Shown here one piece after another: positions 37,064-45,814 of a stretch of 64,000 nt of DNA. The stretch's first letter is position 1. Each line of letters begins with the position of its first letter. The stretch is from Candidatus Cloacimonadales bacterium (lineage in GTDB: Bacteria > Cloacimonadota > Cloacimonadia > Cloacimonadales > JAFGVF01). The stretch lies in contig CAXXJV010000002.1 of NCBI GenBank assembly GCA_963663475.2, positions 64,001-128,000 on the forward strand. Reading direction: 5' to 3'. A model generated the notes under the pieces. The model was not told the origin of the DNA and made no database searches. It saw nothing but the letters and a program-made list of their open reading frames with translations. Both the position numbers and the translations under genes were made by a program.

Positions 37064-39184
37064 TTATTTGAGCAAGAGAGCTTTTTTAATAACTTCCTGT
37101 TTATCAGATTTATATTTAAAGAAGTAGATACCGGAAGCAACTCTTGTTCGTCTTTGATTTCTACCATCCCAAACAATTTTCTCCTGGTCAATATTATGAT
37201 AAGTTTTTACTATCTGTCCTTTGATATTGTAGATAATAAGCTGATTATTATTACTATCAATAGGAAGTTTGAGAGTAACTTCTGGATTAAAGGGATTAGG
37301 GTAAAGTAACATATCAGTTAAAGAGGCTTGGCTATCAGTCTCATTACTAAGAGCTTGCAATTCAAGAGGACCTAAATCTAAACCACCATTAAAAAATCTA
37401 CTATTCCCCATTATATCAAGTTGGGGAACTTGTAATTGATAGGGGATATCACTAGTCGCAGAATCAATAATTTCGGGGTTAAGACTAAAGTTATAGATTC
37501 CGTTATCATCAATCTCAAAAGCAAGTTCATTTACAAATATATTGTTTAATCCAAAAGAAAAATCCAAAGCATTGAATCTAGTATGATAGGCTTTAGCTGA
37601 AAATAATTGATTATCCATGAAGAAGTTATCAATATTCTGATAAATAATATTATTATAAATAATAGCTTTTGAAATATAAGTTTCAATTATTCCAGTTGAG
37701 TGGAAATCATCAGTATTCAAGACTTCATTATTACAGATAGTATTGTTTATAATTCTGGGATTTGAATAATTTATTAAAGCAAAAGAGCCTCCTAGCTCTG
37801 CTTTATTATCATTAACCTGATTGTTAATAAATGAAATATTAGAATCTTTATTTAAGGCTAAAACGCTTCCATAGTTGGCATAATTATATCTAAAAATCGA
37901 ATTTTCTATTCTTATTTTATCGAAATCATAGACATTGAAAACAGCTCCCGCATCAGTAAAAGAACTTTGCTGGTTAGCAAGAGCTTTTGCATATTCAAAA
38001 ATAGCATATTGAAAAAGTGAAGCTTGGTTACTATCATTAGTCTGGTTATATTTAAAACCATTCCAACATCCTGCTAAATCATTATCATAAGTAAAAAGAT
38101 AAGGGTCTGCTGCTGTGAAAGTAATTCTCTCATCAGCATTTCCTTGAGCAAGAAGAGTGCCTTGGACATCAATATGATAAAATTCATTAAAACTAATATT
38201 AGCTCCTGGAGAAAAAGCTAAAGTTACACCATTTTCTATTAGAACATTATCAGTAACTTGGATATCCAAAGAAGTTAAAAGTAGAGATTCAGAGATGGTT
38301 CCAGACAAAGTAGTCCTATCATCAGGAGTTAAATCTCTTTTATGTTTATTTTCTGATGTATATAGCTTACCAGTATCAAAAGTTTGGCATCCATATCCTA
38401 TAGCTGGGCTATTAGCCTGTAAAGTATAGTCTCCATTTACAGGGTCAGTTAATAATGGATCTAGCATAGAAATATTATTATAAGAGCTGGCATCCTGCCA
38501 AGTAGCTGGAGCAACTCAGCCATAGTCACAGAAAAGGCCATAATGATTCATAGCTATTTCATTAGCCCGCCAATCACTAAAATAAGACCAATTATCTGAA
38601 ACAGTAGGTGGCCCATAAGTCTCAATAAAAATTGTAGAGACAAGGTTATGGCCAGTTGGTAGCCATTCAAGACTTTCACTTGTATAATTAACAAAATCAT
38701 CACCAGTTGAATATGTATCTACAAAGATGTTATTAGTAATAGAAATACCTTGTCCTGCTGAATGAATTCTAACTGCATAATCTTCAGCATGATAAAAGGT
38801 TACGTGGCTTACAGATCCTTGAGGTATAAGATTAGTCCCTTCTGTAGAACCCCTAAATTTTACACCACCATTAATTATTACGCAGTCACTAATATCTAAT
38901 CTTTTATCAGTATATTGAATAGTGATAAAGCCTCCCTGTAAATCAAGGATAGCACCATTACCTATAATATTCACATTAGCACCCAAGGTATCTGTAAAGG
39001 TTCCAGGAATATGGTTATAGAGACCTCCAATAAGCAAAGAGCCTGTATAGACTTGGCCAGTATTTAGAATCAGCACTTTGTCATAAAGAGCTGTACCCTC
39101 AGCGTTATCATAAACTTCTTTTAAGCTTGTTCCATTTAGCAGAACAGCTAATATTAATAGCATTGTAGTTAGATATATTTTCAT
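37064..39184 (-). CDS. Candidate selenoprotein: secreted parallel beta-helix protein with FlgD/T9SS-A-like CTD, 706 aa with in-frame TGA at codon 223 (38516-38518)
   Basis: The two track ORFs share a frame and are joined by TGA plus 16 sense codons (VAPATWQDASSYNNIS). Only the first has a signal peptide and only the second has the CTD. SECIS-like hairpin follows the TGA. Confidence 0.7.
38484..38515 (-). promoter_or_regulatory. Putative bacterial SECIS element
   Basis: UGA-GUUGCUCCAGCUACU-UGGCA-GGA-UGCCA-GCUC: G-led apical loop about 20 nt after the UGA, GC-rich in an AT-rich gene. Confidence 0.6.
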
Positions 39185-39193
39185 CTTATTTTC

Positions 39194-39721
39194 CTATTTC
39201 ATTAAATGTATCTTGCGTATTTTAGAATATCCTTGAGGAGAAGATACTTTGTAAAAATATATTCCGCTATGACAAGTATTCCCCTCATTGTCTTTTCCAT
39301 CCCAATCTAAGCTATGATGTCCTTGAGAAAACTCTTTCTTAACTAGATCCCTTACTAAATGGCCTTTCATATCATAAATCTTTACTTCTATTAAAGCACT
39401 TTTAGGAAGAGAAAAATAAATGTTAGCTTCAGGACTAAAAGGATTTGGATAATAAGCCTCATTAGATATTATATTTTCTTTGTATTCAGCTTCTTGGAGT
39501 AACTCAGTCTTCCTACTAACATCTACAATATCTAGGGTATCGGATATAGTAGTTGAATCAATGTTACTTTTGGCAGAGTATATGTTTAAACTATCAGGAG
39601 AAACTGAGTTAGTAGATGTTAAAGAAGAATAATATCTCATGGAAGTAAAAGAATTATCTTTACAAGCAATAAGGTAGAATATTATAAATAATGCTAAACC
39701 AAGTATAAGTGCTTTTTTCAT
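39194..39721 (-). CDS. Lipoprotein consisting mostly of a FlgD/T9SS-A-like domain
   Basis: MKK start after GGAG; 'LIAC' lipobox; 'YPNPFSPEANI...WDGKD...SGIYFY'. Confidence 0.75.
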   Translation of the reverse strand: MKKALILGLALFIIFYLIACKDNSFTSMRYYSSLTSTNSVSPDSLNIYSAKSNIDSTTISDTLDIVDVSRKTELLQEAEYKENIISNEAYYPNPFSPEANIYFSLPKSALIEVKIYDMKGHLVRDLVKKEFSQGHHSLDWDGKDNEGNTCHSGIYFYKVSSPQGYSKIRKIHLMK

Positions 39722-39800
39722 TATAACTCCTTTTTTATAAGACAAGCAAGTAAGGTAAGAGTCAGCAAATCTACTTTAGATGTTATAAGAATCTCTTATT

Positions 39801-40973
39801 TTATTTAATCTTAATCTGTTTAATTACTGTCACTTCTCCCAGTGAATTTTCAAACTTAAATAAATAAATTCCACTAGAGAAATTAGTAAGCTTAAGATTT
39901 GAAGTTTTAGAGGAGTTTACTCGGGAAGAATATATCTTTTGTCCTTTAATATTATAAATACTTATTTTCTCGATTAGATTTTTTGAAGAAAAATTAACTT
40001 CATCAATAAAAGGATTAGGATAAAGAGAAACAATAAAATCATTAGCAATAACATCATTATCTGAGTTATTAACTACTTCTTCATAATTATAATCGTATTT
40101 ATAGGAGTTGTTCCATATTTGATTTTCATTATCCCATAACTTGGATATAAGCTGGCTAGTATTCAAATTATCATTATAGTAATACTGGTAGTTATCATAG
40201 TATTGCCATTGATTATCAGCAAAAGTTATCCCTTCAGTGTAATTTATAAGGCCATTTGTATCGTAAGTATGATTATATTGAAGATAACTTAGCCAAGTTG
40301 TTTCAGACCATGATTGCCAGTCTTCATGAATAATTGAACCACTATCATTACGCTGATAAATACCTTTAATATAGTTGTTCCAGTTAACATCATCAGTTGA
40401 GTAAGTCCAAGTCTCAACTTCTACTCTCCCTTGACTATCATATTCATAAGCTACATCATAAATAGCATCAATTTCTTTGGCTGAAGAGAAGTAAGTCCAT
40501 TCTTCATTAATAAGAAAACCCTCATTATCATAGATATAATCAATATGTAAATATGGTTGCCAAGTGTCATTAGACCAGAAGTCTTGCTGATAAGTAAGAA
40601 TTAAATCTTCTTCATTATATGTATAAGTTTCTTGTTGATAATTTATCCAACCATTATCATAAATTTGATAGATTTCTTGAAGTATTCTATCTTCTTGGTA
40701 AGTATAAATATAATTTTCAATTTCTAACCAGTTATCTTCTATATTTTGCTTTACAAGTACAGATTCTAAGCTTGCATCTTGATAGCTATATTCAGCTTTA
40801 TAAGTTTCAATAAAATCATAAGTTAAGCTATCAGCTAGACTATAGATATAACTTACAAGGTGGTCATCTCTAAGAGGTGATTTATGCTTAATTTCTGGTT
40901 TTTTTAGTATATTAAGACTCCACAGAGAAGTCATAAGAAATATAATAAACAAGAAGAGGGAAAGTTTCTTCAT
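39801..40973 (-). CDS. Secreted protein with W/Y-rich beta-hairpin repeats and T9SS-A-like CTD
   Basis: Signal peptide; about 7 'W.....Y.Y....' repeats; 'LYPNPF...SGIYLF'. Confidence 0.75.
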   Translation of the reverse strand: MKKLSLFLFIIFLMTSLWSLNILKKPEIKHKSPLRDDHLVSYIYSLADSLTYDFIETYKAEYSYQDASLESVLVKQNIEDNWLEIENYIYTYQEDRILQEIYQIYDNGWINYQQETYTYNEEDLILTYQQDFWSNDTWQPYLHIDYIYDNEGFLINEEWTYFSSAKEIDAIYDVAYEYDSQGRVEVETWTYSTDDVNWNNYIKGIYQRNDSGSIIHEDWQSWSETTWLSYLQYNHTYDTNGLINYTEGITFADNQWQYYDNYQYYYNDNLNTSQLISKLWDNENQIWNNSYKYDYNYEEVVNNSDNDVIANDFIVSLYPNPFIDEVNFSSKNLIEKISIYNIKGQKIYSSRVNSSKTSNLKLTNFSSGIYLFKFENSLGEVTVIKQIKIK

Positions 40974-43654: not shown

Positions 43655-45814
43655 TTATTCCTCAATTAATTCTACTTTCATTATTTCTGTATTACCATCA
43701 TTTAAGGTAATTTTGGTAATACCTATTAAATCTTTGATCTCAACTCTTCCATTAAAAGATCTTATTCTTTTCCCCATTATATTAAGTTCTGTTTGTGTGG
43801 CAACAATAATTGTCTTGTCTTCCATACTAACCCTTGATTTACTCCTAACAGTTGAAACTTTACCTAATGATTGAAGTAAGATTAAGGTGTTTTCCCAGAA
43901 AGGATTAAGAACTATTGAATATGGCGGTAAATCTTGCCATTCTAAACCTTCATCTTCTTGATAAAGGGGAAGTCTACTCATTAAAATTGCTAAGGCTTGA
44001 AGTCCACTCTTTTTATTACCTTTAAAATCTAATACATTAAATATTCCATCATAAACAGAAAATTCAAGACTAGTCTTCTTGTCAGATTTAATATAGAATC
44101 TTCCTAGTAAGTCAACTTCAACAGTCCATTTCTCAACAAAGGTCTCATTTCCGTAGCTGACTTTAAAAGATGAGGTATCTTCAACTTTCAGATGCAACAA
44201 ATCTTGTAGATAATTAACAGGGATTAAAGCAGAAATTAGGTCATCTTTTTCAGGTATTGCATAAGCATTAAAGGAGAGCTTATCCTCTCTTTTTTTATAG
44301 TTCAAGAGGTTAGATTTAATAGTTTGACTACCTGGTTCTGCTCCTCTTTGAATATTAAAATGAAGGTGGGGAACAGCTGATCTTCCAGAATTACCTACTA
44401 AAGCAATTTTCTCACCTTTAGCTATCCATTCTCCTTTTTTAACTTTAATAGTTCCTTTTTTAATATGACAATACATAGAATATATACCAAATCCGTGGTT
44501 TAGTACAACAAAGTTACCCCAGTTTTCTCTTGTATTAATCTGGCCAATTGGATTATCTTCAATACCATCAATATAATTAGCTACCCAGCCAGCAGCAGAG
44601 GCTAAGATAGGCTTACCATAACAATAAAAATCTTTGGTACTTTGGCCATCTCCCCTGTACTTACTTCCTTGTTCATCAGTAATTTCAAAGTCCCATGCAT
44701 AAGCCCATTGTTCTCGATGGGTAATTTCTCCATGGTTACCTTGAGTAACTTTCCATTCTCCCACAAAAGGAAGATAGAATTGAAGTCCATCAGCTTGATA
44801 AAATCTCCTAATTTTTGAGTAATAATATTTTAAATTATCTTCAGGTATAAAGATGCCAAAGTTAGCAATGTTTGGGTGTTTATTTTGTAGTCTTAAACGT
44901 AAAGCAATAACTATAACCATAACTGTAATGTTCATAGGAAAGGCATAAGGAGCTACATAATAATTCTCGAATAAAAACTGGAAGGCATAAGTTATGATAA
45001 AACCAAGGATACAGGAAAAACCAGCTATAATGTATGATGCTAAGGAAGGTATAAAAAATACACCACCAATACTGATTGCAATTAACATCAGATTTAAGGC
45101 TGTATAGGATATTTGGTATAAACCAATCGTTTCTAAGTAAGCAGTATTAAAGATTGATACAAAGTAGAAGGATATTCCAAAACCCATTAAGGAAAGGAAA
45201 AAACCAATTCTAGAGGTAAGAATTAAGGCTAAAGCAATTAGTAAGCCGGACAGGATATAGGGTGTGAAAAAGATAGAACCTAATGATTGCAAGTAATAGG
45301 TTATAATATTTGTTTCCATAAACTCATTACCCAAGACTATGAACCTATCTTGAACACTTGTTACTTGACCAATTCTCATAATAAAGAAGGAGAAAAGGAT
45401 TGCCACGATAGAAAAAGATATACTCATAGAGGGCATATTCAGATAAGTTGTAGTAAGATAATTTAAGGTAATGAATAAGAGTAAGGTTATAACAGATGAA
45501 CCAAATAATACTAGCCAATAGGATGAAGTCCAGAAGAGTTCATTAGGCATAAAGAAGCCTATCCCTAGAGAAATAAGCATTGAATTAAAGCCATGAATTC
45601 CGCTTCTTGATGTCCAGTCTTCAAAAGAGAGAATTCTTGCAAACAAGATAGCAATCAGAGCTCCCAAGATACCTGTGAGGCCTGTTAATGGTTCGACTAA
45701 TGTTGCTAAAAGAATAAATAAGCCTACCTCTATCTTCTCACTGAAAAGAATAGAGGAGTAGGCATTTATTATTGATAATCCAAGGTTTTTTAGATTATTA
45801 AAGAAACTTGTCAC
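43655..45814 (-). CDS. Urea-transporter-family membrane domain fused to an M23 peptidase domain
   Basis: 'GIHGFNSML', 'LGSIFF', 'YAFPMN' UT-like TMs; 'H...AWDF', 'GNFVV', 'GNSGRSAVPHLHF' M23 motifs. Confidence 0.8.
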   Translation of the reverse strand: MTSFFNNLKNLGLSIINAYSSILFSEKIEVGLFILLATLVEPLTGLTGILGALIAILFARILSFEDWTSRSGIHGFNSMLISLGIGFFMPNELFWTSSYWLVLFGSSVITLLLFITLNYLTTTYLNMPSMSISFSIVAILFSFFIMRIGQVTSVQDRFIVLGNEFMETNIITYYLQSLGSIFFTPYILSGLLIALALILTSRIGFFLSLMGFGISFYFVSIFNTAYLETIGLYQISYTALNLMLIAISIGGVFFIPSLASYIIAGFSCILGFIITYAFQFLFENYYVAPYAFPMNITVMVIVIALRLRLQNKHPNIANFGIFIPEDNLKYYYSKIRRFYQADGLQFYLPFVGEWKVTQGNHGEITHREQWAYAWDFEITDEQGSKYRGDGQSTKDFYCYGKPILASAAGWVANYIDGIEDNPIGQINTRENWGNFVVLNHGFGIYSMYCHIKKGTIKVKKGEWIAKGEKIALVGNSGRSAVPHLHFNIQRGAEPGSQTIKSNLLNYKKREDKLSFNAYAIPEKDDLISALIPVNYLQDLLHLKVEDTSSFKVSYGNETFVEKWTVEVDLLGRFYIKSDKKTSLEFSVYDGIFNVLDFKGNKKSGLQALAILMSRLPLYQEDEGLEWQDLPPYSIVLNPFWENTLILLQSLGKVSTVRSKSRVSMEDKTIIVATQTELNIMGKRIRSFNGRVEIKDLIGITKITLNDGNTEIMKVELIEE

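Follow-up and report, generated by a model that had tools for sequence, protein, structure and literature searches.

How should a TGA codon be read when it stands, in frame, between two open reading frames (ORFs) that resemble the halves of one protein? The question is raised by a locus in a stretch of 64,000 nucleotides from a Candidatus Cloacimonadales bacterium (GenBank assembly GCA_963663475.2, contig CAXXJV010000002.1, positions 64,001 to 128,000 of the forward strand), referred to here as the window. On its minus strand, ORFs of 222 codons (38516..39184, stop TGA at 38516-38518) and 467 codons (37064..38467) lie in one frame and are separated by that TGA and 16 sense codons only. An earlier interpretation made from the bare nucleotides (the sequence-only reading) had joined them into a selenoprotein candidate of 706 residues, and our read-through translation gives the same product. 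We conclude that the locus is very probably a single gene for a 706-residue selenoprotein, with selenocysteine (Sec) predicted at codon 223. SelB and Sec-tRNA(Sec) would recognise a small hairpin 15 nt past UGA-223 and insert selenocysteine without termination; the signal peptide would direct export through the Sec translocon, and a C-terminal sorting domain would pass the protein to the type IX secretion system (T9SS), which would deliver it to the outside or the cell surface. The steps of SelB-dependent insertion, Sec-translocon export and T9SS delivery are drawn from established knowledge.

Among 61 related genomes we found 20 full-length orthologues (689-797 residues, 37-81% identity), in which the column of position 223 reads TGA 19 times and TGC once (genome G030); four of the 20 also have TGA instead of Cys four residues upstream. 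A scan of the phylum found a match in 58 of 232 genomes, and TGA is present in 54 of the 55 that extend across residue 223, with G030 again the exception. The codon is TGA in all of the best 80 of 215 metagenome loci and, after pooling and de-duplication, in 99 of 100 distinct sequences, the exception having Cys. On contigs from one genome per species, 77 of 78 analysable loci have TGA and one has TGC; these come from the best 80 of 138 loci, two of which lacked the anchor pattern and were not scored. Cys forms are confined to the TGC of G030/L042/L175 and to a Cys in database protein P0009, whose cluster has a Candidatus Cloacimonadota ‘hypothetical protein’ among its members. No relative with readable DNA has TGG, CGA or GGA at this position, and frame and sequence are conserved straight across the UGA in all relatives examined. 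The sequence-only reading had looked to relatives for a retained TGA or a Cys with conservation on both flanks, and had named Trp, Arg or Gly homologues, or halves lying apart in other frames, as what would speak against it. The relatives with readable DNA show the former pair and none of the latter: the halves were never seen as separate genes in other frames, and the internal Met from which the second might start is not conserved. The Cys noted earlier four residues upstream of the UGA is confirmed as Cys219 (TGT), which completes a CxxxU motif; in 25 of the 99 TGA-bearing sequences this position is itself TGA, giving UxxxU, in alternation with TGT or TGC.

These comparisons bear directly on whether a nonsense mutation, or a sequencing or assembly error, has split a former single gene. 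The only thing that speaks for such an event is that a stop codon is there. The same TGA recurs in the 99/100 and 77/78 independent sequences, which span 29-73% G+C (the window itself has 31.6%) and several labelled phyla, both halves are conserved in frame, and independent assemblies keep the codon: four metagenome assemblies of close strains show 30-34 listed differences from the window, none of them at 38516-38518, and 8 further differences outside the listed positions. The comparative data thus refute a pseudogene or error, to which we assign a vanishingly small probability. By record title, carriers of the gene belong to Cloacimonadota (including Tenebribacter and Zophobacter), Planctomycetota/Phycisphaerae and Candidatus Eisenbacteria, with single metagenome-assembled genomes (MAGs) of Acidobacteriota, Gemmatimonadetes and Krumholzibacteriia and many unnamed bacteria, although MAG labels may be wrong. 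The family is common in Cloacimonadota from digesters, wastewater and sediments.

The window's genome (3.3 Mb, two contigs) contains all four of the genes selA, selB, selC and selD, whose presence the sequence-only reading had proposed to check. The tRNA-Sec scores 62.5 bits (cut-off 47), with the anticodon tca assigned by ARAGORN, and is adjoined by selA (508 bits) and selB (333 bits). Because selD (358 bits) carries one in-frame TGA, its product is predicted to be a selenoprotein too. Across the phylum, selA is present in 51 of the 56 genomes with a strong match to the family; the five family-positive genomes without it (G016, G155, G168, G173 and G180) are fragmented MAGs, 64-97% complete and in 20-500 contigs. 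The taxonomic family that is the largest of the phylum in our collection (f4) has selA in none of its 98 genomes and no strong match to the protein; as a whole it seems to have given up Sec use or never to have acquired it. Among sampled carriers labelled as other phyla, five of five have both selA and a tRNA-Sec above cut-off. Loss of the Sec machinery was considered as the cause of the Cys form and rejected, since the Cys-form genome G030 retains selA.

Structure prediction places the codon inside a single domain. The AlphaFold2 model of the N-terminal domain, built from 96 aligned sequences (pLDDT 95.7, pTM 0.93), is one beta-helix that spans the TGA site. The [C/U]xxxU motif lies in an 8-residue loop that follows strand 215-218 and immediately precedes the C-terminal cap; the loop has the consensus H-[YF]-x-x-L-[C/U]-[DE]-Y-G-U and the cap reads DPxLxDPxNGDY...SPAxGYGCQTF. 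The sequence-only reading had taken the stretch after the TGA for the cap that completes the upstream domain, and residues 23-271 are indeed folded together in the model. Cys266, in the cap, is a possible partner of Sec223. In the full-length model (30 sequences, pLDDT 87.5), a signal helix is followed by domain 1, a low-confidence linker (residues 272-282), domain 2, a further linker and a beta-sandwich tail. A signal peptide upstream and a secretion domain downstream of the TGA had likewise been noted before, and correspond to the hydrophobic N-terminus MKIYLTTMLLILAVLLNG and to Por_Secre_tail (residues 627-702). The latter is the sole Pfam or NCBIfam domain of the protein (PF18962, 36.9 bits, cut-off 27; TIGR04183, 36.4 bits, cut-off 23), and its structural matches are the C-terminal domains (CTDs) of PorZ, PorU, RgpB and T9SS-bound substrates, with root-mean-square deviations (rmsd) of 2.7-3.6.

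Could UGA-223 nevertheless act mainly as a terminator, yielding a secreted fragment of 222 residues, with the downstream part rare or arising on its own, through reinitiation or a start at the internal ATG? The two pieces are exactly what gene callers predict and what public databases contain, and the generally low efficiency of Sec insertion makes a certain amount of truncated product likely. However, the beta-helix of the 222-residue piece would be left without its cap, the downstream piece has an export tail yet no signal peptide, and conservation of frame and sequence continues through the UGA in every relative examined. The internal ATG (Met240) appears to be no real start. The residue is Met within the genus only and Gly, Ala or another residue elsewhere in the alignment of relatives, and in the AlphaFold2 model it sits inside a folded domain. 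No purine-rich ribosome-binding site (RBS) is found in UAUAAUAAUAUUUCU-AUG, the stretch that precedes it, whereas AGGA stands 7 nt before the ATG of the true start; the downstream ORF had already been described as lacking an RBS. No terminator-like site was found between the two ORFs. We therefore regard termination as the main fate of UGA-223 as very improbable, and favour decoding as selenocysteine.

In the bSECISearch model of the bacterial selenocysteine insertion sequence (SECIS), a stem-loop follows the UGA, with its apical loop 16-37 nt away and a G among the first loop bases. The hairpin of the window has its loop, GGA, at +21, within that distance and beginning with G. A G-loop hairpin about 20 nt past the UGA was part of the sequence-only reading; it is found at the predicted place, and its support comes from relatives, which conserve it at the bacterial SECIS distance, rather than from the window alone. 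The 36 nt that follow the UGA have a mean folding energy of -11.9 kcal/mol in 99 sequences, against an average of -6.2 in other windows of these genes, and they rank in the lowest tenth for 72 and the lowest twentieth for 55 of the sequences. In 17 relatives, 90.6% of the hairpin's cells are paired. Two arrangements exist, one in subfamily A (70 sequences, including that of the window) and one in subfamily B (28 sequences). Subfamily B has the peptide U-x-P-P-Q-x-V-S-W-A and a 6-bp stem with the loop AGUUG; paired cells make up 95.2%, against 21-51% in slid controls and with 0/500 shuffles matching it, and 25 compensatory cells fall in three pairs, at synonymous or neighbouring positions. Subfamily A keeps a UGGCN-GGA-NGCCR hairpin with 82.3% of cells paired, against 17-59% when the partner is slid, and 18 compensatory cells, all at the closing pair, a covariation reached by 0/500 shuffles. 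Hairpin covariation is strong in subfamily B and modest in the window's subfamily A. The distance between hairpin and UGA is unchanged between the subfamilies though the encoded peptide shifts by two residues, which protein constraint alone can hardly account for. A second hairpin, GCC-GGUUC-GGC, picked out by eye in high-GC members, was set aside as not general (59.5% of cells paired, 32-46% in slid controls).

Several observations weigh against this account, and they concern the hairpin first. The 91 nt around the UGA of the window fold no better than shuffles (z = -0.17), the hairpin there is only 5 bp long, and a fold as good is reached by 16% of other windows in that gene. In subfamily A, covariation is limited to the closing pair, which is unpaired in 32 of 70 sequences, and conserved Trp and Ala codons make up the stem core, so that its conservation is partly explained by the protein. 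RNAalifold on 17 sequences returned a different, weak structure (-3.2 kcal/mol) with no compensatory pair. Beyond the hairpin, the fold matches of the N-terminal domain are generic beta-helices (lyases and tailspikes), the PorV-like match in the window's genome scores 139.6 bits, under the cut-off of 250, and no conserved neighbour was found that could inform function, synteny being confined to the genus. A look through the listing of public sequencing runs turned up no RNA run. Finally, five database proteins run through site 223, and Trp stands there in four of them (P0010, P0020, P0028 and P0029, known from protein records alone; the fifth, P0009, has the Cys mentioned above), with Trp at 219 too in P0010 and P0028.

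These Trp residues would fit a different decoding of TGA, in which a suppressor tRNA, or a genetic code other than the usual one, assigns it a standard amino acid (Trp, Cys or Gly). They probably reflect TGA translated by a table-4 gene caller, because they fall exactly where TGA and Cys alternate, which is what such a caller would print. TGA closes 7 of the 32 stop-to-stop frames of at least 300 codons in the window and is therefore an ordinary stop there, as the sequence-only reading had maintained; several orthologues also terminate in TGA. The complete Sec machinery co-occurs with the family, and a structured element follows the codon. A standard-amino-acid reading is accordingly very improbable, and insertion of selenocysteine remains the reading that we prefer.

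The family is widespread and has apparently escaped description so far. Residues 1-300 gave 112 matches among 1.84 billion representative proteins, and many of these stop exactly at query residue 222. A near-length search with the same residues retrieved no annotated full-length form, and near-length C-terminal pieces of 467-470 residues came from NCBI/ENA records, where they stand as separate entries; the gene is therefore annotated in two parts. Every database copy found of the TGA form is either split at the UGA or has Trp at the site. In NCBIfam release 20 no selenoprotein model matches the protein, only the T9SS tail does. Table 1 of a 2026 review (PMC13188914) lists 119 selenoprotein families and has no CxxxU or UxxxU, beta-helix or T9SS entry, and the nine new families of deep-Sep (PMC12013277) do not, in the part of that paper used here, include this beta-helix family. 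Full-text literature outside subscription journals, which lay beyond the coverage, yielded no relevant T9SS, Cloacimonadota, parallel beta-helix or Planctomycetota selenoprotein; the only mention of Cloacimonetes alongside selenoproteins, in the portion of the source drawn on, concerns the shape of tRNA-Sec (PMC5330540). The earlier statement that no exported beta-helix selenoprotein family has been described thus agrees with the NCBIfam models, the review table and the full-text literature. Because Cys homologues are almost absent, the family would have been invisible to searches that rely on Cys homology.

How does the protein compare with known systems? Escherichia coli FdhF is the type case of a SelB-decoded bacterial selenoprotein with a SECIS hairpin inside its ORF. 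Like selenoproteins of the FdhF type, the present family combines an in-frame UGA with a G-loop hairpin about 20 nt downstream, Sec/Cys exchange and selABCD. Unlike them, it is a parallel beta-helix rather than a thioredoxin-like or molybdopterin enzyme, it has a CxxxU/UxxxU motif and predicted surface export, and its Cys homologues are almost absent (1/100 and 1/78). In appearance the recoding is canonical, and the protein context is unusual. Envelope or extracellular selenoproteins are represented in Table 1 of PMC13188914 by the FCYXU-type TonB-dependent receptor (NF049945), the GSU2204 outer-membrane family and the multiheme cytochrome ExtKL, and MccSep is counted among them in a preprint (10.1101/2025.11.18.688581), as far as the part drawn on here goes. 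The present family resembles those of the review in having its predicted Sec outside the cytoplasm, in a Gram-negative envelope, and the TonB receptor type has a C-x-x-U-like motif. It differs from them in showing no sequence relationship (no NCBIfam match), in fold (theirs being beta-barrel and cytochrome), in the CxxxU spacing and in being a predicted T9SS cargo, which none of theirs is.

With regard to fold, the nearest among solved structures are alginate lyases of polysaccharide lyase family 6 (PL6; BcAlyPL6, 7dmk, and AlyGC, 5gkd) and the pectate-lyase superfamily; the shared features are the right-handed parallel beta-helix and the arrangement of two helix domains one behind the other. 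Using VIA-align, the best match to the N-terminal domain is 7dmk_A (Z 14.3, 185 residues, rmsd 3.1); the domain aligns to the C-terminal part of 7dmk (residues 526-747), not to its N-terminal part. Foldseek gave no match to this domain in the PDB at E <= 0.001, and for the full-length protein its best matches are two-domain PL6 alginate lyases (7dmk, E 3.6e-5). Identity to PL6 lyases is only 10-16%, and lyase and PbH1 Pfam models do not match the protein at E up to 0.1. NosD (7o0y, Z 10.8) was rejected as a specific match, being indistinguishable from the surrounding lyases and tailspikes. We know of no lyase that uses Sec.

The C-terminal tail connects the protein to a secretion route and varies between lineages. 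Like T9SS cargos with a type-A CTD (RgpB, PorZ and mirolase), the protein has an inferred signal peptide and a beta-sandwich CTD of about 80 residues; unlike for this family, no selenoprotein cargo is described in the literature searched. The window's genome encodes a SprA homologue (487 bits summed, over the cut-off). A search of the same genome with the protein gave 129 matches, nearly all to the tail only, with paralogues aligning to residues 400-705, an indication that the T9SS-type secretome is very large for a 3.3-Mb genome. In genomes labelled Planctomycetota/Phycisphaerae (loci L168, L172, L199, L202, L209 and L232), the Sec core carries other C-termini and no T9SS tail, some of them Asp/Gly-rich repeats that look dockerin-like by eye; the module for surface anchoring has thus been exchanged from one lineage to another. 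Short forms, in which the Sec beta-helix domain is joined directly to the T9SS tail, are also found (P0020, P0028 and P0029, 319-355 residues).

What the Sec residue does can be addressed from its pattern of conservation. The predicted Sec persists in almost all relatives, and about a quarter of them have a further Sec instead of Cys at the position four residues before it; on this evidence the selenol is functionally essential. That Cys forms are almost lacking, and that UxxxU variants occur, argues for selection on selenium chemistry itself. With low certainty, the motif may form a selenylsulfide, diselenide or selenolate site, which may carry out extracellular redox, sulfur/selenium-transfer or metal-binding chemistry; alternatively, and with equally low certainty, the [C/U]xxxU motif may keep a cross-link intact in strongly reducing habitats. 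A redox or sulfur/selenium/metal function at the cell surface is thus proposed with little certainty. One hint at sulfur or selenium transfer comes from a single cluster: in P0024 (528 residues), two rhodanese domains stand between a lipoprotein-type signal (…LFSC) and the beta-helix domain, which ends just before the C/U position. The database search found no second rhodanese-fused cluster, and none of the family loci examined has a rhodanese gene adjacent to it. Flanking ORFs of 160 loci, when clustered, gave lineage-restricted groups only, among them a PrsW protease at 22 loci and an aldo-keto reductase/Fe-S protein at 18. As a tentative proposal, which we hold with less than even confidence, this would be the first surface-displayed selenoprotein family among T9SS cargos. 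Its near-obligate Sec, present twice (UxxxU) in a quarter of lineages, would give the beta-helix an extracellular centre of the selenolate, selenylsulfide or diselenide type, acting on sulfur, selenium or metal species or serving as a cross-link that, unlike disulfides, stays oxidised in sulfidic reducing habitats.

The positions of the gene, its signals and the Sec machinery are collected in the table. The RBS-like site overlaps the TAG stop of an upstream gene for a 183-residue T9SS-tail protein (39194..39745), and the two genes are for this reason probably co-transcribed.

Table. Features of the selenoprotein gene in the window and of the Sec machinery elsewhere in the same genome (G000).
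Feature	Position	Strand	Remarks
Whole selenoprotein gene	37064..39184	-	706 codons and TAA stop (37064-37066), one in-frame UGA; from frame and full-length orthologues; very probable
RBS-like AGGAAAA	39189..39195	-	7 nt before ATG (39182-39184); read in sequence
N-terminal signal peptide (inferred), residues 1-~20	39125..39184	-	Hydrophobic N-terminus; low-confidence helix, residues 2-15
Beta-helix domain 1, residues 23-271	38372..39118	-	Right-handed parallel; contains Sec loop and C-terminal cap
Cys219 codon TGT	38528..38530	-	First position of [C/U]xxxU motif
UGA codon 223, proposed selenocysteine	38516..38518	-	Column conserved as TGA in relatives
SECIS-like hairpin UGGCA-GGA-UGCCA	38488..38500	-	5-bp stem from 16th nt after UGA; G-led loop at +21 to +23
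Internal ATG, Met240	38465..38467	-	Start assigned by ORF callers to a ‘467-aa protein’
Cys266 in conserved SPAxGYGCQTF cap	38387..38389	-	No variation in 30 full-length sequences; conservation of at least 90% in 96
Second beta-rich (beta-helix) domain, residues 283-611	37352..38338	-	Full-length AlphaFold2 model
T9SS type-A C-terminal sorting domain, residues 625-706	37067..37312	-	PF18962, TIGR04183 and structural matches
tRNA-Sec/selA/selB cluster	G000 C1:2346376-2349783		L001, L009, L010
selD	G000 C1:619467-620393		L018; apart from tRNA-Sec/selA/selB cluster

Two further features of the neighbourhood were observed. The 183-residue protein is one of two small T9SS-tail proteins encoded directly upstream on the minus strand, the other (39801..40973) having 390 residues, and both are conserved within the genus only. 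Farther upstream, a minus-strand ORF of 719 residues (43655..45814) joins two domains that are not usually fused, a urea-transporter (UT) and an M23 peptidase domain.

Prokaryotic selenoproteins are seen mainly as intracellular or periplasmic redox enzymes, most of them thioredoxin-like and many with Cys homologues. The family described here departs from this picture in its beta-helix fold, its predicted surface export, its CxxxU/UxxxU motif and a Sec that is almost never replaced by Cys. In the genomes that carry it, a conserved protein about 700 residues long escapes annotation pipelines. The family may serve as a test case for Sec-finding methods that are independent of Cys homologues, and for the question of why selenium would be needed outside the cell in anoxic habitats.

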